Shown one piece after another: positions 2,276 through 13,108 of a stretch of 64,000 bases of DNA. The DNA comes from Candidatus Eiseniibacteriota bacterium. GTDB lineage: Bacteria > Eisenbacteria > RBG-16-71-46 > CAIMUX01 > VGJL01. Each line of letters begins with the position of its first letter. Position 1 is the first letter of the stretch. Under the pieces are notes generated by a model that saw only the letters and a program-made list of their open reading frames with translations, did not search any database and was not told where the DNA came from. The DNA is taken from the NCBI GenBank assembly GCA_963792585.1, contig CAWBWI010000006.1, positions 896,001 to 960,000 of the forward strand. The letters run 5' to 3'. A program made the translations under genes and the position numbers.

Positions 2276-2465
2276 GAGACGCATGCAAGTTGCACGAACG
2301 TGCCATTTGCGTGGGGGACGTGGGATATTGCGAATCCCGACGTCTTGAAATTCGCAATGGCCCTTCCTCGAGGCTTGGCCAGCGGAACCCCTAGTTGCTT
2401 GCCGGGTATGGCGCTAGGTCTTCTCCCATCGTGACCGGATGGAATTCGACAAGAGCGTTTCATCT

Positions 2466-2480
2466 CGGCATCAGGCTTGC
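2466..2480 (+). promoter_or_regulatory. Putative sigma-54 (-24/-12) promoter of the pilin gene
   Basis: CGGCATCAGGCTTGC is GG-N10-GC with TTGC at -12, about 75 nt upstream of the pilin ATG. Confidence 0.6.
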
Positions 2481-2553
2481 GAGAGGGTGTCCGGTTGGTC
2501 CATCGAGACCGCATGGGTTTGGGTCGAATCGCGGGACGAAGGGAAGTGTCACC

Positions 2554-2928
2554 ATGAAACGGCTGGGTCGCGAACAGGGATTCACCCTGATCGAGTTGGC
2601 CATCGTTTGCGGGGTGATCGGCATCCTGTCCGCCATCGCAATTCCGAACTACGCCAAGACCAAGGCGCGGTCATCCGGGGCAGCCTGCGTCACGAACCAG
2701 CGAAACCTGTTCGTCGCCGCGACGCTCTACGCGTCCGACCACGGAGTCGCGGACGTTGTTCTGAATTGCCACACCCTGTTCGAGGAGAAGTACATCTCCG
2801 CGGAGATGGCGGACTGCCTCGATAGCGACGTCCGCGGCCAGGACGACTACAGCATCACGATCGAAGAAGGAAAGGTGACGAACGTCACGTGTGACATCGT
2901 CCCGGACGAGCACCACTGGGACCCCTGA
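2554..2928 (+). CDS. Type IV pilin / prepilin-type N-terminal methylation domain protein
   Basis: Class III signal peptide MKRLGREQG/FTLIEL with E5, followed by a hydrophobic helix and IAIPNY. Confidence 0.88.
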   Translation: MKRLGREQGFTLIELAIVCGVIGILSAIAIPNYAKTKARSSGAACVTNQRNLFVAATLYASDHGVADVVLNCHTLFEEKYISAEMADCLDSDVRGQDDYSITIEEGKVTNVTCDIVPDEHHWDP

Positions 2929-2982: not shown

Positions 2983-4989
2983 TCAGGGAGTCCCTCCACG
3001 ATCGAGAACGATCAGCTTCACGATCCCCCGGCCGGTCGGGGTCGTGAGGCGCAGGAAGCGGATTCCGCTGCCCGTCGCATTCCAGCTCCATTCGTGCCTC
3101 CCACCAGGGAACACACCATCGATGAGGCAATCGACTTTCCTGCCGGCGACGTCGCAGAGATCGAGTCGCACGGGCCCCGACTCCGCGAGTTCGAAGGAAA
3201 TGCGCGTCTCGCCGCACGCCGGGTTCGGCCTCGCGATGAGAAGCGGACGCGTGGGCGCGACAACCGGCAACGACGCGTCGGCCGTCATCGGCTCCTCGAG
3301 CCAGTGGACGATCCGTCCAACCAGCGTCCGCAGGTTGTTCGGATCCGGCCCCTCCGTGGGCACGGAATTCAGGGCAACGGGCATGAAGACCGCCCGCGCC
3401 CCGTTGGGCGCCACGTTGCGCAGCATCGCGCGCGATCCGTTCGGCGCAGTCAACACGGCCACGGCGGAGGCGCCCGGCACGGCATCGTCTCCTTTGCTCT
3501 GGAACGGTCCGTTGAACTGCAAATCGAGACTCACCGCATCTCCGATCGGATCGCCGGGCGTGCCGTCCAGGTGCGCGTAGCCGGTATCGAGCGTCCAGGA
3601 CGTGACTCCCAGATCGTCGCGCACGAAGTCGCTCTGGGCGGAGATCCCGTTCAGGAACCCCTGGCTCGTAAGGCAGAGGGCGCTCCCACCGGCCATCAGT
3701 TGATCCAGGGCGACGATGTCGAAACGATCCAGGGGGTAGGTCCCGAGATCGAAACCAGTGTGCCAGAGGACGACCTCGTAGTCGCGGATCTCTTCGATGA
3801 GCGGTGAATCCTGCCCGTGCGCGTGATAGCTGTCCCAGACGTCATAGATCAAGCCGTTCGCCGCAAGTGCCTCGAGCACGGCGGCTTCGTCCGCGCGGTT
3901 GCCGTCATCGTCGACGACCAACAGCGATCGTCCCCCGTTGAAGAGCTCGATCCTCTCCGAAGCCTCCCTCCCGGACGCGCGCGAGGCGACGCGGATGGTT
4001 CCACCGCGGACGGCGAGCGCCGCGTCGGTCCGAACACGAACCCGGACGAGCGACTCTCCGCCGGGATCCAGCGGAAGGTCGGCCGCGCCGTCGACCATCG
4101 CGTCCCAGCCCGCGAACGAACCCGCATCGAGGCCGATCGAGATCGTGTCGGTTTGCGGACCGGTGTTTCGAACGGTTGCATCGAACACCGACTCGCCGTT
4201 ACCCGAGGGAAGCGAGGCGACCGTGCGGGCGAGCGTGAACTCGAAATCTCCGTACGGTAAGCGTGCCGCCTGAATGACCGGACGGTTCCCCGCGGTCTGT
4301 TGCAGGAACGCGACCGCATGGATTTCAGCGCCGTTCCACGCGTCGTCCGTGGGGACCACGCGCGAGACGGTGACCCGATCGCCGGGGCTCTCGAGCGTGA
4401 TCGGCTGATCCACGATCGCGCGCACGACGTGTTGCCAGTGCTTCCCGCCGTAGGGGATCTCGTTCTCGTAGAGGATCAGCATGGCGTGCAGAGAGGAAAT
4501 CGCCACCGGATCGAGCAGCTCGAAGGTCGCCTGGATGACCACCCCATCCTCACCCGGAATGTAGGAGCCGGCGATCTGCACGGGGCTCGTCCCCCCGGTT
4601 TCCTGCAGGCGCTCCTCGATTCGCGCACGGTAATCGCCGGAGGTCTGATCGCAACTCTCCGCGCCGTCAACGGCAACCTTCCCGTCGATGCGCACGGCGG
4701 GAACGCCGCCCACCCCGTACCAGGCGCCGCGCGCCGCGGCCTCCGTCGTCGAGAGGGCCCCCGTGATGTGGTATTCGAAGGAGATGAAGCGCTCGCCGTA
4801 CTCCTCTTGCATCACCCGGAGCCCGCACCGGGCCCAGAAGCAGTAGCCTCAGAGGACGTGCCCGAAGTCCTCCGCGAGAATCACCTTCGGCACGCCGGCG
4901 GTCGCCGGCGCGGCGGGCAGCGCCGCGGAGAGAACTACTGCCATCGCGGCCGCGAGCACCGCGCCGTGGAAGCGGATTCGAAATCGCAT
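2983..4989 (-). CDS. Probable secreted selenoprotein: Omp28/thioredoxin-like domain with UxxC, central domains and a C-terminal FlgD/T9SS-like domain (TGA at 4849-4851 read as Sec)
   Basis: ATG 4989 (GGGGGG SD) is in frame with ORF 2983..4815. It reads signal peptide, then KVILAEDFGHVL-TGA-GYC. Downstream Omp28-type motifs: FEYH, YGVGGVP, LYENE, HVVR, AVAFLQ, VIQAA. A hairpin follows the TGA. Confidence 0.8.
4812..4848 (-). promoter_or_regulatory. Putative bacterial SECIS element
   Basis: After the TGA the sequence reads ggctactgcttct GGGCCC-GGTGC-GGGCTC. The apical loop begins with GG 19 nt after the UGA. Confidence 0.6.
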
Positions 4990-5197
4990 CGTCCCCCCTG
5001 GAATACACCGCGTTGCGAAAGCCGGCCATGACCGTCACGACGTTGCAGAAGGAGTATAGCAGGGGACGTCGGCCCGGCGCGATGCCTCCGCTGTGGCCCC
5101 GGCGCGTCTTTCTTCCCGGCTTGACTCCGGGTACGGCCGCGTCGAGGATGGTCGTTCCATCGTATCGATGCGCAACCGCCGGACAGGAGAACGCCGG

Positions 5198-5593
5198 ATG
5201 AAGGTGAACGTCATCCTCTACGTGGAGGACCAGGAACGCAGCGCGCGATTCTACGCACGCGTGCTCGGCTTCGGTCCCACCCTCGATGTCCCCGGAATGA
5301 CCGAGTTCGCGATCGGGACCGACGTCGTGCTCGGTCTTATGCCCGCCGCCGGGATCGTGCGCCTACTGGGCGACGCCATCCGGGATCCACGGGAGGCGGC
5401 GGGAATCCCCCGCGCGGAGCTCTATCTCATCGGCCCCGACGCGACGGCCATGCATGCCGCGGCGCTCGCGGCGGGCGCTCGGGAGTTGAGCCCCGTCGCC
5501 CGGCGCGACTGGGGCCATCGCGCGGGGTATGTCGCCGATCCGGACGGGCATGTCGTGGCCTTCGCCGAAGTCGATCGCAACGCCCCGGCGTGA
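5198..5593 (+). CDS. VOC/glyoxalase family protein
   Basis: ILYVEDQERSARFY and RDWGHRAGYVADPDGH motifs; AGGAG SD. Confidence 0.85.
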   Translation: MKVNVILYVEDQERSARFYARVLGFGPTLDVPGMTEFAIGTDVVLGLMPAAGIVRLLGDAIRDPREAAGIPRAELYLIGPDATAMHAAALAAGARELSPVARRDWGHRAGYVADPDGHVVAFAEVDRNAPA

Positions 5594-5666: not shown

Positions 5667-6248
5667 ATGACCAAGCGTAGGATGATCGCCCTCGTGTCGA
5701 TGCTGCTCACCGTCGGAACGGCCCTCGCCGCTCTGGCGCAGCGCCCCGACCCCGCAATGATGATCGGCGCGCAGAAGGAGGCGATGGCGCGCTTCGCATT
5801 CATGGACGGCGTCTGGAGAGGTCCCGCGTGGACCATCCTGGACACGGGCGAAAAGCACGAGATCACGCAGACCGAGCGGATCGGACCGATGCTCGATGGA
5901 TCGATCAGGGTGATGGAAGGGCGGGGCTATAACGCGGACGGAACCGTGGGCTTCAACGCCTTCGGTATCATCTCCTATGACCTGAGCACGAAGAGCTACG
6001 CCCTGCACTCGCACGCACAGGGATTCGCCGGCGACTTCCCCCTTACGCCGACCGCCGACGGATATGTCTGGGAGATCCCCGCGGGACCGATGACGATCCG
6101 CTACACCATGACCCTGAAGGACGGCACGTGGACCGAAGTCGGGGATCGCGTCATGCCCGGCAAGGACCCGATTCGCTTCTTCGAGATGGACCTGAAGCGC
6201 GTGGGCGACACCGACTGGCCGGCGGCGGGAGCCGTGCCGGCGAAGTAG
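5667..6248 (+). CDS. Secreted protein, DUF1579-like beta-barrel
   Basis: AAGGAGG SD, signal peptide, and FMDGVWRG and FFEMDLKR motifs. Confidence 0.65.
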   Translation: MTKRRMIALVSMLLTVGTALAALAQRPDPAMMIGAQKEAMARFAFMDGVWRGPAWTILDTGEKHEITQTERIGPMLDGSIRVMEGRGYNADGTVGFNAFGIISYDLSTKSYALHSHAQGFAGDFPLTPTADGYVWEIPAGPMTIRYTMTLKDGTWTEVGDRVMPGKDPIRFFEMDLKRVGDTDWPAAGAVPAK

Positions 6249-6330
6249 CGGGCGGCCCGGCTCGCGACGACCGGTCGGCGGCATCAGGGTCGTTTGGGGC
6301 GCGCGTCGGGAGAACCGGCGGGAGCACCGT

Positions 6331-7020
6331 CTATCCCGCGTATGCCTCCGAGAGCTTGGCCAGATAGGCGATGACCGCGTCCGCGAAGCTGCGGTAGTGG
6401 ATCCCGTCCACCACCCATGTGGCCGGATCCGACTGGGACATGAGGTACATCTCGATCTCCACCGCGGCGCCGAGCGCGCCGGTGAACTCCCCTTGCGCCG
6501 CGAGCCCGGAGCCCGCGATCAGGTAGAGGTCCTTCCGGTCGAACGACGGCGCGTGGGCGAAGACGAAGCCGGGCGCCATTTGCACCGTCGCCCGCGCCTC
6601 CGCGACCGCGGCGACGTTGTCGCCCATGGCGAGCAACACGGCCGCCCGTCCCGCGTGCGCCTCGGAATCCGAGGACACAAGCTCGATCGCGGCGTCGAGG
6701 CGACCCAGCGCCACACGCAGCGCCGTCGTATCGGCCGCGAGTTCCAGCCGGCTCCACCCCTCCCCCACAAATGCGGGCTCGTGGAGACGGTCCCGCGCGA
6801 TCGCGGCCTCGAAGAGCCCGGCGGCGTCCGCGAAGTCCCCTCTCTCGAACGCGACCCAGCCCTTGGCGGTGAGCGCCTCGGCGGTGTCGAGCGGCACGGT
6901 CGGCCCTCGATCGTCTCCGCAGGCGACGAGGGCGAGCAGGATCGCCGGCAGGATCCTCATCCACCCGACGCGCCTGAGACCGCGGTTCGTCTCGCACCCG
7001 TATCGCATGCCGTCCTCCAT
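6331..7020 (-). CDS. TPR-containing lipoprotein
   Basis: Lipobox LALVAC and TPR-like helices (GWVAFERGDFADAAGLFEAA). Its start overlaps the stop of the upstream gene. Confidence 0.75.
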   Translation of the reverse strand: MEDGMRYGCETNRGLRRVGWMRILPAILLALVACGDDRGPTVPLDTAEALTAKGWVAFERGDFADAAGLFEAAIARDRLHEPAFVGEGWSRLELAADTTALRVALGRLDAAIELVSSDSEAHAGRAAVLLAMGDNVAAVAEARATVQMAPGFVFAHAPSFDRKDLYLIAGSGLAAQGEFTGALGAAVEIEMYLMSQSDPATWVVDGIHYRSFADAVIAYLAKLSEAYAG

Positions 7021-9086
7021 CAGAACTCGATCGTCGCCTGGGCTTCGCCGAAGTGAACGCCGAAGGCCCCGTCCGCCGTCACCGTCGCGCTCGGCGTTCC
7101 CGGCAGCAGGTTCACGTTCCCGTGATAGAAGCCGGGACGCCCCGCGATTTCCTCCATCGAGATGGGCACACCGTCCGTCACGACCCGCAGCTCATCGAGA
7201 TGTCCCTCAGCAGTTACGAAGACCTGGAAGGAACGTGCCCGTCCGGGATTGCGGATCAGGCTCAGGTTCAGGACAGGCGCCGGCCGCGCCGTCACTGCGA
7301 TCGAGCCGGAAACGCCCGTCACGCGGAGGCTCGTGCCGATTGGATTGCGAAGCGACAGCCCTCCCAGCGTCAGTGTTGTCGACGCCCCCGAGTCGGCCAA
7401 GGCGCCGAACCGGAGGCTCGCAATCGTCCCTGTTCCCGGAGCAAGCGACGTACCGCTGGGGGCGCCGAGGGTCAGCATGAGCGTTCCGCTCTGCGGAACG
7501 GTCGCCGTGCAGTTGAGGCCGCTCCCCCGCCCCGCATGCTCCGCCCCGAGAAATCCCACAACGGTGGGATCGAATGCGATCTCCGTCTTGAGACTCCTGA
7601 TGTCGTTGTCATTGTCCAGCGTGAGCGGAATCTCGATCTCCCCGGCGGCCGGGACCGTCACGTTGGGCAGACCGACGACATTCTGGCCATCCGGGTACCC
7701 AACGAGATCGAAGTTGCTCGTCGTCTTGGAGGACCAGTGCAGCCCGTCGAACGCCTCGACCTTCACCCTCGCCCGCGTCGAGGGCGTGTCGGGAATCACC
7801 CAACGGTATCCACCGATGTACGGCTGGTCCGTGGCGATGTCGATCCAAGTCGTCCCGGCATCGGTCGAGTATGCGAAATCGATCCGAAGGTCCATCGGTT
7901 CCGTATCGCCGTCGTGCACCGTGAAGAGGATGTCGTGCGGGGTACCGACCAGCCAGTCCTCTCCGGCGCGCGGAGAGCTCACATAGATCGTCGGAGCCTG
8001 CGACATGGCGAAGTCGGAGTCCGATACGTCCTCGCCGTGGTCCTGCCCGTCGGAGACGATCGCCCGCACCCGTCCATGCCTGGTGTTGTTGTGGGGGTTG
8101 GTCAACCACCAAAACTTGCCCGTATTCTCGCTCGGGGTCTGACCGATCGGATCCCACGTCTCCCCGCCGTCGCTCGAGAACTCGAAGCGCATCTCCAGGC
8201 CGGACGTCGGCGTGTCGGGGTCGGTCGCTGCGTATAGGATCGTTTCAACTTCGCCCGATCGGAGGATCTCCCCTCCATTGGGGCTCAAGACCTGGACCTG
8301 CGGCGGCTGCGTCAGGATCGTGAAGTCCGCGTCCGAATCATCATAGGTTTCGTTCTGGCCGTCTCCGACGATCACGCGCAGGCGGGCGCGGGTGGTCCGC
8401 GTGCTGGGCACCGTCCACCGGCAACTCCCCATGTTGTAACACCAGCTGTCGGCGTCCGACCACGATACGCCGGAATTCGTCGAGAGCAGGACCTTCGCAT
8501 AGAGGTGCGCATCGGGGGTGTCGGGATCGGTCACGTCGTAGGTGATCGACAGCACCAGACCCGACGGGTAGGTCTCTCCACCATTGGGGACGAGAAGCGT
8601 CACCGAAGGGGGCATCGACGGCGATCCATCCGGCCACTGGACGGAGAGGCGATATGGGGCATCCGCGTCGTGCGCGCCGCTGAAGCCGAAGACGAGGACG
8701 TAGAAGGTCCCTGTCCGGTAAGTGTCGATCGACAACTCCTCATCATCCAGCCCGGAACGGGTCGCCCGCCATCCCTCGAAGCTCTCGATCTCGCCCGTCA
8801 TCGGATTCTTCACGAATAGGATCAGGTCGTAGTCGGCGGGAAGATCGTGGAGCCGGATCTGAATCGTTCCCATGACGGCGACCACGAAGGTGAACCAGTC
8901 GGGGTCATCGGCGGTCGAGATCCACGACTCGACCTCGACGCCGTTTTCGAGGACCGTGGCCGTCGCGGCGGTATCGTTGGGCTCGAAGCTGTCCGCGCGT
9001 CCCGGAGCCGCCGCAAGCAATCCAGCGGCCAGGAGCAGCAAGACGGCCAGCGCTGCGCGTGGGCCGCGCCCGAGTCGATCCGTCAT
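7020..9086 (-). CDS. Secreted multidomain protein: PPC-like domain, three PNGGE-type Ig-like repeats and a cohesin-like domain
   Basis: Signal peptide from ATG 9086. DSFEPNDT..DPDWF..DYDLIL (PPC-like); repeats PNGGE...STNSGVSW/SSDGGETW/STDAGTTW...RARxRV; IEIPLTLDN..IAFDP..GTIASLRF (cohesin-like). Confidence 0.7.
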   Translation of the reverse strand: MTDRLGRGPRAALAVLLLLAAGLLAAAPGRADSFEPNDTAATATVLENGVEVESWISTADDPDWFTFVVAVMGTIQIRLHDLPADYDLILFVKNPMTGEIESFEGWRATRSGLDDEELSIDTYRTGTFYVLVFGFSGAHDADAPYRLSVQWPDGSPSMPPSVTLLVPNGGETYPSGLVLSITYDVTDPDTPDAHLYAKVLLSTNSGVSWSDADSWCYNMGSCRWTVPSTRTTRARLRVIVGDGQNETYDDSDADFTILTQPPQVQVLSPNGGEILRSGEVETILYAATDPDTPTSGLEMRFEFSSDGGETWDPIGQTPSENTGKFWWLTNPHNNTRHGRVRAIVSDGQDHGEDVSDSDFAMSQAPTIYVSSPRAGEDWLVGTPHDILFTVHDGDTEPMDLRIDFAYSTDAGTTWIDIATDQPYIGGYRWVIPDTPSTRARVKVEAFDGLHWSSKTTSNFDLVGYPDGQNVVGLPNVTVPAAGEIEIPLTLDNDNDIRSLKTEIAFDPTVVGFLGAEHAGRGSGLNCTATVPQSGTLMLTLGAPSGTSLAPGTGTIASLRFGALADSGASTTLTLGGLSLRNPIGTSLRVTGVSGSIAVTARPAPVLNLSLIRNPGRARSFQVFVTAEGHLDELRVVTDGVPISMEEIAGRPGFYHGNVNLLPGTPSATVTADGAFGVHFGEAQATIEF

Positions 9087-9097
9087 TCCTCGAACTC

Positions 9098-12000
9098 TCA
9101 ATGGAGCACCAAGACCTTCCGGCTCACGGCATTCCCCGCCGTCTTGAGGCGGAGCAGGTAGACCCCCGAGGCGAGCGGTGCGCCCCTGCCGTCGCGCGCG
9201 TCCCACGCGATTGTGTGCGTCCCCGCCGTGAAGACACCTTCCTTCACGACCGAGACGATGCGTCCTCCCATATCGAGCAGCTCCAACCGGATCGCGCGCC
9301 CGCCGGCCGGGATCGAAAGGCGCAGGGCCGCGCGATCGCGCACCGGGTGGGGGCTCGGCATTTCCAATGCGAAGACCGCGCCCCCGATGCTCGCGCCGTC
9401 CCAGGATCCGAGGACGACCGACGTCGGCTCCGCGCCGCCCTCGTAGATCCGCAGGGTGTACGTTGCCATCTGCCCCTCGACCGGCGATGAGTCGATGTAC
9501 TCGCAGGCGCGACAGGCGGCCAGCCGCTCGGCCGTCAGCCTCTCCGTCCGCCCCCCGACCTCGCGATCGATGTCGAATCCCAGCACGGTCACATCCAGGG
9601 GAAGACTCCAGTAAAGCCGGACTCCGCCGGGGACCGCCTCGAGACCCGAGGCTTCGAGAAGAACCGGATATGGTTCGCACGCGAGCTCATAGCTCGGGAT
9701 GGTGTCCGGGCATGCCGGGGGAAGATCCTCGATGCGATACAGGCAGCTGTCGCAGGTGGTCGTCCGTGCGTCCCGGATGATATGGACCGACGGCCCATAC
9801 CAGTCTCGGATGTTGCACGCGAAGTGGGTGCTGTCCGCGAGGATCGCTGCGTATGGACCCGACGCGTCGATCCACGGACAGAACCCGCCGTCGCCGTCGT
9901 ACCGGAGCTCGATCTCCGGAACGCCCCAGACGAAGGCATTGCGCTCCATCCGGAAGTGTCCCGGACGCGGTTCGCGGAGGGGATTCGTCCGAAGGCAGGC
10001 TCGGAGACCCACGTTCACGAACACGTTTCCGATCAGGTCCATCGAACCGGCCAGGTGGACCATGTCGTCCATGTCGCACATGCTGCCGCCAACAAACGTG
10101 AAAGAATTTCCGACGACCTGGGCGGGACCATCGATGATCAAGCTGGGCTGGAAGGCCATGCAACATCCGTCGAAACGATTCTTCGTGACCTCGCCCCGCA
10201 CCGCGCCCGCGCCGTAGGAGTAGGGCTCCGCGTCATTGACCATGACGGCGTTCTTCCGGAACACCCCCTCGGCGACGACGCCCCCGGCCGTCGGCGCCCG
10301 ATTGTTCTCGATTCGGTTGCCCTCCACCCAGCACCGGCGGCAAAAGAGCCCCCCGGCGACCCCGCCGGTCTCCGGATCCGTCGACCAGATGTCCGCGTTC
10401 GGGGTCGAGTTCTCGACGCGGTTGTAGTGGATGTCGTTGTCGATGATTCTCGCGCCCGCCGTGGCGAAGATTCCCGCCCCCCGCGCCCCCGCGCCGCTCG
10501 CGGTGTTTGCCGCCACGGTGTTGTCGCGGATCATGGCCGGCGCCTCGCAGAGGATTCCCGCGCCCGGACCGCCGACCTGTCCGCCCGTAATCAGGAATCC
10601 ATCGATCTCGGTCAGGGGCCCTGCCTGCGGGAGCACATGGATGACCCGTTGATCGGGTTGCCCCGGCTTCAACCACGACGACGGCCAGGAGGCGACTCCG
10701 CGCAACCGCACCGGTCGATCGATGACGAGGCTCTCCTCGTAGGTTCCGGCGGCCACACGGATCTCGCTGCAGGGCGCCGCGGCGGCCAAGGCAGCTGCGA
10801 TGGTCGGCGCGTCCTCCGGCACGCGGATGACGGGAGGCGACCCCAGATAGAGCGCCGGCTGCACCGAACGCGTCTCCCCGTCCCACACAACCGCCACGAG
10901 ATCGTATGCGCCCTCGGGCGCCCCGCGCAGATCCGCCCGCACCCGCAGAGAATCCGTTCCCAAGACCTCGACAACTTCGATCGGTACGACGGGTGTGCCG
11001 TCTCCCGAATGCTCCAGCCTGAGCTGGAGGCCCTCCCACAGGTCGCGGCCCGTGATCGTTCCCTCGTATAGGGTCGGGGCAGGCACCCAACCGTCGAAGA
11101 ACCCCCATATCTCCACGGGACCCACCTCGATGTCGGCAGCGGGTATCTCCCCTGCGGTCGCTGTCCGCAGAACGAGCGCCCAGATTCCGCGCGCTTGCCC
11201 CACCAGGTCGAATCCCAGCGTCACCCACGGACCCTCGATCGTCAGGATCTTGCTCGGGATTCGTTCGCCGTGCGGACCGTCGAGCCGCGCATCGAGGACT
11301 TCCTCCAGACCGTAGCCATACACGCGAACCCGCTCGTCGATCGCGGGCTGCAGGGTGTGGGGAGTCACCCCAACGGTCATCGGGCCCGTGCAACCAACCG
11401 GCAGGCTTCCGATCCGGCCGCAGTTGTTCCAGTCGCTCCAGAGCGGCGAGGATTCGTGGACCGACGTTTCGTCGTTCGGGCAGATTCGCGGATCGACCTG
11501 TACCTCAACGTCCATGCCCCGCGTCGCCGGCGGATCCTCGATCTGCGGAGATTGAAGGTCATGGTAGATGTTGCAGCCGAAGACCGACCGGTCGGGCGCC
11601 TCGACAAAGGTTCCGAACGAGGGACCCTTGTCGAAGAAGAGACAGTTCTGAACCTCGACCAGCTCGTTGCTCACGATTGCGGCCGTCGCGCGCGCCCGAT
11701 TCGATAGGAAGGAGCAATTCCGGAACTGGAAGCGGATCGCCGCCATCTCGCCGGAAAACGTGGCCGCGGCGGGGCGCGATCCTCCCCAGTCACCGTCGAT
11801 GGCGACCGCTCCGCCCCATCCCGCGTTCGGGTTGTCCGCCGCGTTACGGATGAAGAGACAGTCGACGAAACTCCCGGCCGCCTCGCCGCTGTATCCGACC
11901 GCCCCGCCGCGGGCGTGGTCGTAGTCGACGCTCGTGACGTGGTTGTCCCTGAAGACGCAGCGCACGGCATCGAACGTGCCGTTGGTGCAGAGGACGGCCC

Positions 12001-12355
12001 CCCCGATCGCCTCGGCGCGTCCACGTTCGAATGTCAGTCCCTCGACGAGTAGGGTGCTGTTCTCCAGCTCCAGCATCCGCCGGGCGTCACCGCCGCTCAC
12101 AAACGTAGAGTCGGCGCCTTCGCTGCCGCGGATGGTCAGCGGAACGAACGGCCGAAGTTCCTCCGAGTAGGTCCCCGGATGGACTTCGATCGTGTCCTCG
12201 GCCGCCGCGGCGGAGATCGCTGACCGGATCGTGAAGAAGGGACCGGCCTCTTGGTCGACGACGAGCGTTGCCGCAATGACGGGAGAGGCGGCGAGTCCGA
12301 GCATGAGGAGGCATGAGATGACGGTGGCGATCAGAACGAGGGTCGGGTCGTTCAT
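9098..12355 (-). CDS. Large secreted protein with two pectin-lyase-like parallel beta-helix regions and a C-terminal FlgD/T9SS-like domain
   Basis: Signal peptide from ATG 12355. Two TI.AA..AA...I.V..GTY.E starts with GGAV/GAGI repeats. C-terminal DMGGRIV...WDARDGRG...SGVYLLRL. Confidence 0.75.
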   Translation of the reverse strand: MNDPTLVLIATVISCLLMLGLAASPVIAATLVVDQEAGPFFTIRSAISAAAAEDTIEVHPGTYSEELRPFVPLTIRGSEGADSTFVSGGDARRMLELENSTLLVEGLTFERGRAEAIGGAVLCTNGTFDAVRCVFRDNHVTSVDYDHARGGAVGYSGEAAGSFVDCLFIRNAADNPNAGWGGAVAIDGDWGGSRPAAATFSGEMAAIRFQFRNCSFLSNRARATAAIVSNELVEVQNCLFFDKGPSFGTFVEAPDRSVFGCNIYHDLQSPQIEDPPATRGMDVEVQVDPRICPNDETSVHESSPLWSDWNNCGRIGSLPVGCTGPMTVGVTPHTLQPAIDERVRVYGYGLEEVLDARLDGPHGERIPSKILTIEGPWVTLGFDLVGQARGIWALVLRTATAGEIPAADIEVGPVEIWGFFDGWVPAPTLYEGTITGRDLWEGLQLRLEHSGDGTPVVPIEVVEVLGTDSLRVRADLRGAPEGAYDLVAVVWDGETRSVQPALYLGSPPVIRVPEDAPTIAAALAAAAPCSEIRVAAGTYEESLVIDRPVRLRGVASWPSSWLKPGQPDQRVIHVLPQAGPLTEIDGFLITGGQVGGPGAGILCEAPAMIRDNTVAANTASGAGARGAGIFATAGARIIDNDIHYNRVENSTPNADIWSTDPETGGVAGGLFCRRCWVEGNRIENNRAPTAGGVVAEGVFRKNAVMVNDAEPYSYGAGAVRGEVTKNRFDGCCMAFQPSLIIDGPAQVVGNSFTFVGGSMCDMDDMVHLAGSMDLIGNVFVNVGLRACLRTNPLREPRPGHFRMERNAFVWGVPEIELRYDGDGGFCPWIDASGPYAAILADSTHFACNIRDWYGPSVHIIRDARTTTCDSCLYRIEDLPPACPDTIPSYELACEPYPVLLEASGLEAVPGGVRLYWSLPLDVTVLGFDIDREVGGRTERLTAERLAACRACEYIDSSPVEGQMATYTLRIYEGGAEPTSVVLGSWDGASIGGAVFALEMPSPHPVRDRAALRLSIPAGGRAIRLELLDMGGRIVSVVKEGVFTAGTHTIAWDARDGRGAPLASGVYLLRLKTAGNAVSRKVLVLH

Positions 12356-12661
12356 GGGTATAGGGCCGCTCCCCCGTCGACCAGGGTGACGGGGAGAGAT
12401 TCGCTCGCCAGTCGCGGCCGCCACGTGTGTGCTGGAAACGTTGTAGGCGAGACGCGAGGCGGCCCTGCGTCCGTTCGCCATGGACCCTCCGATTCGGGCA
12501 ACGCAATTGTAGGACGACAGGGGGGCCCGGTGCAATGGAGCATCTACGAGGCGTCGCCCCCAGGACCACGGACCTCAGGGCCGGCTCATGGGTTCTGTAT
12601 CCTGATCCCCGCTCCCGGATGGGAGCGAACGCCCCCGGATCCGATCCCGAGATTAGGAACG

Positions 12662-13108
12662 ATGCTTCCCTTCAGGCAGGTCGCTCGGGTGATTGTCATC
12701 GATTCCACGGGCTTCATCTTGCTCCGTAGGTACTCCGAAACCAGGGGGTGCCAAGGGATTTCCTTCTGGGTCCCGCCGGGAGGCGCTCTCGAGCCGGGGG
12801 AAAACCATCCCACGGTCGCCCTCCGCGAACTTCGGGAAGGGACCAGCCTGGAGGCGCATCTGGAGCGTCCGCTATGGGAGCGGCGCTTCACGCTGCAGAT
12901 GCAGTGCGGGCCTGTGGACCAAGTCGAGCGCTACTTTCCGGCGCGGTTGCCGCTGGAGAAACCGCCGGTTCTCAACTCGTCCGAGGAGGCGTGCCACCGG
13001 CTATTTACAGTGCCTCGGATCCGCGGTTACTCTCCGTACCAGGCGCCGCGACTTGCGCCGCGTACTTCGCAAATGAACCAGGGGAAGGCGTTCGCCCATG
13101 CAGAATGA
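12662..13108 (+). pseudogene. Degenerate NUDIX hydrolase
   Basis: The Nudix box GGALEPGENHPTVALRELREGTSL has lost conserved E and G residues (consensus REUXEEXGU). The C-terminal part no longer resembles the family. Confidence 0.5.

Follow-up and report, generated by a model that had tools for sequence, protein, structure and literature searches.

Selenoproteins of the kind considered here have been predicted before. GOS_C, described in 2008 by Zhang and Gladyshev with 74 TGA-containing sequences and 312 Cys homologs in GOS data, has a thioredoxin-like fold, a UxxC motif (U, selenocysteine, Sec) and a selenocysteine insertion sequence (SECIS)-like element, and the passages describing it give no functional evidence (PMC2398784). 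HBP35 of Porphyromonas gingivalis, the closest relative with a solved structure, reduces insulin faster than Escherichia coli thioredoxin, and its C48S/C51S mutant is inactive; it also binds haemin and is required for growth in haemin-poor medium, hbp35 complemented an E. coli dsbA mutant, and the C-terminal domain of the protein is required for it to reach the outer membrane (PMC2907840). Its secretion depends on the Por/type IX secretion system (T9SS) (PMC3120885). Here we analyze a gene at positions 2983..4989 (minus strand) of a 64,000-nt stretch of DNA from a Candidatus Eiseniibacteriota bacterium (assembly GCA_963792585.1, contig CAWBWI010000006.1, positions 896,001 to 960,000; this whole stretch is called the window below). 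Codon 47 of this gene is an in-frame TGA that is very probably decoded as Sec, giving an exported UxxC thioredoxin-fold protein likely carried by the T9SS to the cell surface. A hidden secreted selenoprotein had been proposed at this position from the letters and open reading frames (ORFs) of the window (the sequence-only reading); its selenocysteine decoding is strongly supported by our in silico data, and the thioredoxin-fold UxxC kind was already known through NF045500/GOS_C, predicted in 2008.

In the table-11 ORF list, the gene appears as a 610-aa ORF with a GTG start (2983..4815, minus strand). Minus-strand translation with TGA read as U gives one frame from ATG 4989 to 2983, in which codon 47 (4849-4851) is the sole internal TGA, as the sequence-only reading had it. 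An in-frame stop lies upstream, after which ATG 4989 is the first start codon, with the Shine-Dalgarno-like (by eye) G-rich run AGGGGGGA immediately 5' of it. With Sec at codon 47, the predicted product has 668 residues in the order MRFRIRFHGAVLAAAMAVVLSAALPAAPATA-GVPKVILAEDFGHVL-U-GYC, the motif around this codon being L-U-G-Y-C; the N-terminus, MRFRIRFHGAVLAAAMAVVLSAALPAAPATA/GVPKV, resembles a type I signal peptide (by eye), and the gene's own terminator at 2983-2985 is TGA as well. A 274-nt contig from public run X1, which spans 4760-5033, differs from the window at 4804 and 4981 and is identical at 4849-4851, so that the sequencing error considered when the gene was first proposed finds no support there. 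The features of the gene are:

2983..4989, minus strand: whole coding sequence by translation, with TGA codon 47 read as Sec; 668 residues, followed by the terminator TGA at 2983-2985.

4897..4989, minus strand: putative signal peptide, residues 1-31, with a basic n-region, a hydrophobic core and A-T-A before G32 (by eye; leaders of homologs are similar).

4849..4851, minus strand: in-frame TGA, predicted Sec47, first position of U-G-Y-C (4840-4851), from the homolog column and the profile alignment.

4815..4838, minus strand: predicted SECIS hairpin, with core stem 4829-4833/4821-4825, loop GUG 4826-4828, lower stem 4834-4838/4815-4819 and bulged U 4820, from alignment, covariation and folding.

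4225..4896, minus strand: HBP35/Omp28-like module, residues 32-255, a thioredoxin fold (Sec47, Cys50 and the cis-Pro-type Pro97) plus a beta-sandwich, from profile, AlphaFold2 and Foldseek results.

3931..4230, minus strand: Ig-like beta-sandwich domain, residues ~254-353, from the predicted structure.

3286..3930, minus strand: alpha/beta domain with a class-I glutamine-amidotransferase-like (ThuA/STM3548/IFT52-N-like) fold, residues ~354-568, from the predicted structure and assigned by fold only.

2986..3228, minus strand: FlgD-Ig/T9SS type-A-like C-terminal sorting domain, residues ~588-668, shortened and divergent here, from family profile matches.

The codon 47 column was followed in homologs by a six-frame search with residues 1-250 of the product against 41 genomes, namely the window's own and 40 relatives. 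Matches were obtained in 35 of the 41, most of them with exactly one internal TGA; the hits took in each of the 34 genomes of the window's order (families f1 5/5, f2 13/13, f3 15/15 and f4 1/1) and none of six genomes of other families. Across the 35 distinct homologous sites (34 loci) aligned by tblastn, the column reads TGA in 32, from 29 genomes, and TGC in three, within the consensus V-P-K-V-x-x-x-E-x-F-G-A-T-W-[U/C]-x-Y-C-P-x-A-R-C-G-L. Twenty stop-free homologs were also taken, 17 of which align across the column and all have Cys in it (13 TGC, 4 TGT), the other three having no alignment there. Thus, the Cys/TGA column with conservation on both sides that was to be looked for in homologs is present, and UGA aligned with Cys between two conserved flanks is one of the criteria by which bacterial selenoproteins are recognized. 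At all 35 sites, a signal-peptide-like leader of ~25 residues precedes the TGA position and ends in AxA right before V-P-K-V; such a leader is to be expected only if translation passes the TGA. The copies in the window's genome comprise five TGA forms (~742k, 900k, 968k, 970k and 972k on C6, the contig of the window) and one Cys form (~328k).

Downstream of the UGA, the transcript is predicted to form a hairpin. Its core, GCCCG-GUG-CGGGC (G4833-C4821), begins after 15 nt 3' of the UGA, and the extended hairpin at 4815-4838 has 10 bp, one bulged U and a folding energy of -14.9 kcal/mol. The hairpin noticed from the sequence is therefore there, and the 19-nt spacing given for it corresponds to a loop that includes the closing G-C pair; without that pair, the loop begins 20 nt 3' of the UGA. 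The bacterial SECIS model, as given in the Fig. 2 legend of PMC13188914, has an apical loop of 3-9 nt, an upper stem of 4-16 bp, a G in the first two loop positions, a distance of 16-37 nt from the UGA and a minimum free energy of -7.5 kcal/mol or lower, the loop typically being N-G-[G/U]-N-N with the outer pair closing. The window hairpin agrees with every one of these constraints (loop GUG or GGUGC, 5-bp core and 10 bp in total, 20 nt, -14.9 kcal/mol), and the energy limit of -7.5 kcal/mol is reached by 29 of the 32 aligned TGA forms.

For the comparison of TGA and Cys forms, the 51 nt from the TGA onward were aligned without gaps in the 32 TGA forms, and an 8-pair structure of our own was scored with controls. 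The five core pairs are complete in 29 of the 32 TGA forms, compared with 3 of 20 Cys forms, the stems of the remaining three TGA forms being shifted or bulged, and the first loop base is G in 32/32 TGA forms versus 1/20 Cys forms. Codon choice within the hairpin is restricted as well: the Arg codon is CGG in 29 of 32 TGA forms, and the Gly codon is GGG in 24 of the 25 TGA forms that have Gly versus 4 of 14 Gly-bearing Cys forms. Pair 21-29 is always paired across the TGA forms (CG 24, GC 7, UG 1), and it couples the wobble position of the first Ala codon with the middle base of the Gly/Ala codon lying four codons further; judged from the alignment, its covariation is an RNA-level and not a protein-level signal. 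Pair 23-27 is GC in 30 forms, AU in one and GU in one, and the hairpin of the 742k paralog, ACCCG-GUG-CGGGU, has A-U as its outer pair, a further compensatory change. The structure has a covariation score of 0.227; shuffles give 0.101, none of the 500 attaining 0.227, and slid partners do not exceed 0.110. As far as the aligned forms go, the compensatory changes and the synonymous-codon restriction amount to an RNA-level constraint confined to TGA forms. The three lower stem pairs are formed in about half of the sequences only, RNAalifold retains 3 pairs on the 51-nt alignment, and an Rfam scan of 4700-5000 gave four matches, all far below the gathering scores and none to a SECIS family.

The genome of the window is a 7-contig, 5.4-Mb assembly with 65% G+C and 84% completeness, of which C6 is one contig. 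It encodes the Sec machinery that the prediction calls for: selD (386.7 bits), selB (320.9), selA (486.9) and tRNA-Sec (68.4) were all found, each above its curated cut-off. The selD gene (G000:C6:190513-194439, where G000 is this genome) is itself a TGA-containing selenoprotein gene, with the motif CAG-U-AAK, and its hairpin loop (GGA) starts 20 nt past the UGA, which is the spacing of the codon 47 element. A genome-wide code with TGA as a sense codon was considered and rejected, since TGA terminates 1060 of the 1823 stop-to-stop frames of at least 500 codons in this genome.

The N-terminal module was modeled with AlphaFold2 from its sequence and 33 relatives (predicted local distance difference test, pLDDT, 95.5; predicted TM-score, pTM, 0.90) as a thioredoxin fold followed by a beta-sandwich. 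In mature numbering, the model has a strand at 5-11, a helix at 18-35 and strands at 36-42 and 66-69, and C15, C18 and P65 are invariant in the relatives; the beta-alpha-beta core, the CxxC at the start of helix 1 and the proline before strand 3 that define a thioredoxin fold are thus all present. The first Foldseek match to this module in the PDB is 5y1a, HBP35 of P. gingivalis (E 5.8e-11, query TM-score, TMq, 0.79), and the second is 2axo, a DUF-type thioredoxin-like protein, other matches covering the beta-sandwich only. A PDB sequence profile search found the MJ0307-type thioredoxins 1fo5 (E 1.4e-7) and 1nho (E 9.1e-7) as its top matches, in addition to HBP35. The Sec column coincides with the first Cys of CxxC and with Cys48 of HBP35, in F-T-A-E-W-C-G-Y-C-P. 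Two further cysteines, Cys55 and Cys113 (mature 23 and 81; codons 4822-4824 and 4654-4656), are both present in 30 of 33 relatives and both absent in the other three, which have A/P or Q/Y instead; this co-occurrence suggests a structural disulfide, which is likely from the sequences and would fit a location outside the cytoplasm. Residues 254-584 are modeled with a pLDDT of 91.8 as an Ig-like sandwich and an alpha/beta domain, the latter with STM3548 (2gk3), the IFT52 N-domain (5fms) and a ThuA-like protein (1t0b) among its best matches, all class-I glutamine-amidotransferase-like proteins without assigned chemistry, together with true amidotransferases.

The sequence-only reading had assigned the protein to an Omp28/thioredoxin-like type. 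Fold and family profiles support this, and the support is weaker for the window copy. By itself, the window protein matches NF045500 at E 2.8e-7 (30.2 bits), DSBA at E 0.01, NF033782 (lipoprot_Omp28) at E 0.016 (14.4 bits, cut-off 150) and TIGR04183 at E 0.051, and no lipobox cysteine was found by eye in its leader, which ends in A-T-A/G. When 24 full-length relatives were aligned, NF045500 was matched by 24/24 (best E 7.6e-20), FlgD_ig by 23/24, TIGR04183 by 19/24 (at E<=0.01, best 1.9e-9), the PorU C-terminal part by 14/24, NF033782 by 12/24 and Pfam Omp28 (PF11551) by 11/24 (best E 2.3e-7). The T9SS-like tail that was also claimed is thus borne out for the family, through TIGR04183 and FlgD_ig, and not for the window copy, which scores 13.6 bits against the TIGR04183 cut-off of 23; a shortened C-terminal domain is common to the window protein and its orthologs.

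As for the route of secretion, the genome encodes PorU above its cut-off (569 bits), and of the 50 non-PorU matches listed, all of them weaker, some 45 ORFs align to no more than the PorU model's C-terminal part (~960-1095), which suggests a large repertoire of T9SS-type cargo. With PorV-like and SprA-like matches that lie below their cut-offs, the repertoire of the genome looks T9SS-like, and carriage of the protein to the cell surface by type IX secretion is likely.

The family is expanded in the window's order. A profile of the N-terminal module, searched against 151 sampled genomes of the phylum at E<=1e-10, matched 34 genomes with 164 matches in total, 1-11 per genome, and these include each of the 27 genomes of the order that were sampled in addition to the window's own, and only 6 of 123 from other families. 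Among the 150 matches listed (of 164), ~103 contain one TGA and 47 none (hand count). Tandem copies are frequent, with five on one contig of genome G022 and three just past the end of the window. These three, at ~C6:968k, 970k and 972k (L125, G000:C6:960001-979000, ~6188-12873), lie 6-13 kb beyond the window and are all TGA forms. The frame of the 970k copy is lost in its C-terminal half, and that of the 972k copy shifts within the thioredoxin module; both are either pseudogenes or products of assembly indel errors. The 742k paralog (G000:C6:741738-742445, minus strand, L126) has ~345 residues, comprises the thioredoxin module and the C-terminal domain only, and carries the motif F-G-U-P-P-C. 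In 185,579 species genomes, a DNA pattern over the TGA and hairpin picked out 49 loci, mostly in records of Candidatus Eisenbacteria or "uncultured bacterium"; loci in records of Thiobacillus, Solirubrobacterales, Bryobacteraceae, Pseudonocardiaceae and Anaerolineae may be chance matches. A single-protein query against genome contigs found no relative, and a word-based protein search with the family alignment gave 13 matches with no informative names.

In a maximum-likelihood tree of 51 N-terminal modules, an all-Cys clade of 13 rows, with the motif ...C-x-Y-C-P-x-A-Y-Q/A-G-L/I, is separated from a mixed clade in which 31 rows are Sec and 7 are Cys (100/100 for each clade). These Cys rows are dispersed, and the state must have changed at least 7 times on the tree. 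With a root between the two clades, Sec would be ancestral in the mixed clade and repeatedly replaced by Cys, which agrees with the fossil hairpins of some Cys forms described below.

Several observations weigh against the reading of a surface-exported selenoprotein. Folded alone, the 71-nt stretch with the hairpin is no more stable than its shuffles (z = 0.61; the DNA is GC-rich), so that the significance of the hairpin comes from the comparative data only, and because the hairpin overlaps the conserved peptide A-R-C-G-L, its conservation is partly protein-level. The Cys forms L034 (genome G032), L039 (G033) and L059 (G031) retain an in-register stem, GCGCG-CUG-CGCGC, with the loop G replaced by C; they are nested among Sec forms in the tree. 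Together with Cys form L058 (G017), in which the stem is shifted by one and the loop is GUG, they look like carriers of fossil SECIS elements left after Sec-to-Cys replacement. The window copy falls under every curated cut-off (NF045500 30.2 vs 200 bits, TIGR04183 13.6 vs 23), has no match to Pfam Omp28 (PF11551) at E<=1, and is the sole one of the 24 members without a FlgD_ig match at E<=0.01. Among the secretion components, the best PorV-like protein scores 118 bits against a cut-off of 250, one PorV-like gene adjoining porU, and SprA-like pieces in one stretch of contig C4 score 156 and 130 bits against 200; as far as our searches go, the literature holds no study of the T9SS in Eisenbacteria. 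No conserved redox partner adjoins the window gene, the 966-973k array or the five-copy array of G022, which makes for a surface thioredoxin without an obvious reductant. The run X1 contig and the window may have the same sample as their source. Finally, the case as a whole is built on sequence and comparison.

If the protein is made as predicted, SelB with Sec-tRNA(Sec) would bind the GGUG-loop hairpin while the ribosome stands at the UGA and Sec47 would be inserted, as in the bacterial Sec pathway. The leader would direct export through the Sec translocon, and the protein would fold in the periplasm with a Cys55-Cys113 disulfide, after which the C-terminal domain would hand it to PorV/PorU of the T9SS for attachment to the surface or release. 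By analogy of fold and with HBP35, Sec47 at the N-terminus of helix 1 would attack a substrate disulfide or other oxidized sulfur, and Cys50 would resolve the selenenylsulfide, in a cycle that could be that of a reductase, oxidase or isomerase.

Two alternatives leave the decoding of the TGA untouched, and we regard each as improbable. First, the selenoprotein could remain periplasmic or sit on the outer membrane's inner face, with the Ig-like C-terminal part serving as a structural domain and a DsbD/CcdA-type route supplying electrons. Such a location would solve the reductant problem, FlgD_ig is a generic Ig-like fold, and the window copy, with its shortened C-terminal domain, lies under the TIGR04183 cut-off; against it stand the matches of 19 of 24 members to TIGR04183 and of 14 of 24 to the PorU C-terminal part, the PorU above cut-off, and the ~45 ORFs, among the 50 listed, that match only the C-terminal part of PorU. 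HBP35, the closest solved relative, is moreover exported by the Por/T9SS through its C-terminal domain (PMC3120885, PMC2907840).

Equally improbable, in our estimate, is a module that mainly binds a ligand, either haem, like HBP35, or, on a selenolate-thiolate pair, a soft metal or metalloid, instead of acting as a catalytic oxidoreductase. A Sec-x-x-Cys pair is a strong soft-metal ligand, and diversified binding would be in keeping with the many paralogs, whose x-x residues and appended domains vary. Catalytic thioredoxins, however, have this motif, this fold and a proline of the cis-Pro type. HBP35 itself provides an argument for each side, as it binds haemin and is needed in haemin-poor medium, but its thioredoxin activity depends on its two cysteines (PMC2907840).

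The remaining alternatives concern the TGA itself. As an ordinary stop, it would separate a 46-codon upstream ORF from an independent 610-aa ORF starting at GTG 4815 (or Met60), and this is how table 11 and the public catalogs read the gene, TGA being the commonest stop in this genome. When the N-module profile was searched against 1.84 billion cluster representatives, the matches numbered 198 (E<=1e-30), 2591 (E<=1e-10) and 9163 (E<=1e-3). In 104 of the best 150, the match starts within the first 14 residues of the protein and at position 17 of the profile or beyond, hence just past the Sec column (hand count). Starts of this sort would follow from gene callers that stop at TGA, but a part of them may be fragments at contig ends. 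The four closest catalog orthologs all begin with MQEE..., at a Met 13 codons past the TGA, which confirms the suspicion that standard gene callers miss the N-terminus; called without signal peptide and active site, entries of this kind would pass as hypothetical proteins of the cytoplasm. Missing from the downstream ORF would be not only the signal peptide but also the first strand and the active site of the thioredoxin fold, the leader and motif upstream are conserved in 35 of 35 sites, the column is Cys in 17 of 17 stop-free homologs, and the RNA-level constraint on the hairpin is found in TGA forms only. We therefore consider an ordinary stop highly improbable. Least probable of all is that the TGA arose as an error of sequencing or assembly, or that a Cys-form gene has recently decayed into a pseudogene: the frameshifted paralogs at ~C6:970k and 972k do imply that the assembly holds indel errors or decaying copies, but TGA occupies the column in 32 of 35 sites from 29 genomes and occurs in ~103 of the 150 matches listed phylum-wide, the run X1 contig has the identical TGA, and the rest of the frame is intact over 668 codons.

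Under the preferred reading of an exported, surface-bound selenoprotein, a broader proposal can be put forward tentatively, namely that Eisenbacteria may coat their surface, via the T9SS, with arrays of Sec-containing thioredoxin-fold enzymes, up to ~10 paralogs per genome, as an extracellular selenium-based thiol-disulfide system. We consider this possible and still doubtful. If true, these would be the first surface-displayed bacterial selenoenzymes, which might, for example, open disulfide-rich substrates or keep co-secreted cysteine proteases active, and selenium would be a major determinant of the dealings of this soil and sediment phylum with its surroundings. Even for the family as such, provided its proteins are produced as predicted, the surface biology of these organisms would be shaped by the selenium available, and its natural Sec/Cys pairs would offer material for asking why Sec is preferred outside the cell.

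Some further observations concern the surroundings of these genes. Beside the three-copy array (L125:15895-18031, plus strand), an ORF for a Peptidase_C1 papain-family protease (E 1.7e-47) overlaps a FlgD-Ig-tailed ORF in a different frame; the two may together represent a single secreted protease that a frame error has split, and a FlgD-Ig-tailed cysteine protease next to the array hints, as a single case, at a link to secreted thiol enzymes. The convergent neighbor of the window gene (2395-2928, plus strand) encodes a small protein with a prepilin-type N-terminal methylation motif, and the divergent neighbor (5093-5593, plus strand) a glyoxalase-family protein, neither with an evident link to selenoproteins. 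Elsewhere in the window, the long ORFs 7020-9680 and 9098-12535 (both minus strand) overlap in different frames, one with weak cohesin/PPC/BNR matches and the other with beta-helix matches and a FlgD-Ig tail.

How does this family compare with known systems? No paper linking Omp28 or Eisenbacteria to selenoproteins was found in a search to which subscription papers and BSepDB itself did not belong. Omp28 and Eisenbacteria are absent from the text of the BSepDB paper, the entries of which may already list such genes, and in the review PMC13188914 the words Omp28, Eisenbacteria, T9SS, "secret-" and "periplasm-" do not occur. The kind of protein has nevertheless been predicted, since NCBIfam NF045500, "Omp28-related selenoprotein", is GOS_C; by its profile scores, the Eisenbacteria family is a distant relative and not a member. 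Window residues 35-242 align to positions 39-264 of the 377 of this profile, and the window protein has its UxxC near the N-terminus within a thioredoxin-like fold, as that family does, but the cut-off is 200 bits and the best copy in the window's genome reaches 49.3. Common to both are a predicted selenoprotein with a thioredoxin-like fold, an N-terminal UxxC, a hairpin after the UGA and many Cys homologs. Unlike GOS_C as described, the Eisenbacteria proteins have ~350 or 680 residues and occur in up to 11 copies per genome, with Ig-like and GATase1-like domains and a FlgD-Ig/T9SS-type tail, a comparison made by description only, as GOS_C was described from marine reads and its description gives no location or architecture (PMC2398784).

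HBP35 (5y1a) shares with the window protein the thioredoxin plus beta-sandwich fold, a W-C-G-Y-C-P-type motif, a signal peptide and a C-terminal export domain; it differs in having Cys instead of Sec, only 344 residues and neither Ig-like nor GATase1-like domains, at an identity of 16%. The Omp28 family resembles ours to the extent that PF11551 and NF033782 are matched by 11/24 and 12/24 members, whereas NF033782 is named a lipoprotein family and the window leader, ending in A-T-A/G, is without a lipobox cysteine (by eye). Known UxxC selenoproteins, which include a Sec-thioredoxin, a glutaredoxin, DsbA-like and DsbG-like proteins and a thiol:disulfide interchange protein, have in common with the window protein a Sec at the N-terminal motif position, a thioredoxin fold and a SECIS element within the coding sequence after the UGA; they are single-domain or periplasmic, and the sections of PMC13188914 that treat them describe none with a T9SS-type sorting domain. 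The MJ0307-type archaeal thioredoxins (1fo5, 1nho) align their CxxC to the UxxC and their cis-Pro loop to that of the module, but they are cytoplasmic proteins of 85 residues with Cys only and without the beta-sandwich. To our knowledge, nearly every bacterial selenoprotein is a redox enzyme of the cytoplasm or periplasm that a genome encodes once or a few times. By contrast, we find here a multi-domain family with a secretion signal and a T9SS-type domain, mostly in the Sec form and in 1-11 copies per genome of the order. What is new compared with these systems is the multi-domain T9SS-tailed architecture, the likeness to HBP35, the likely surface location and the order-wide expansion.

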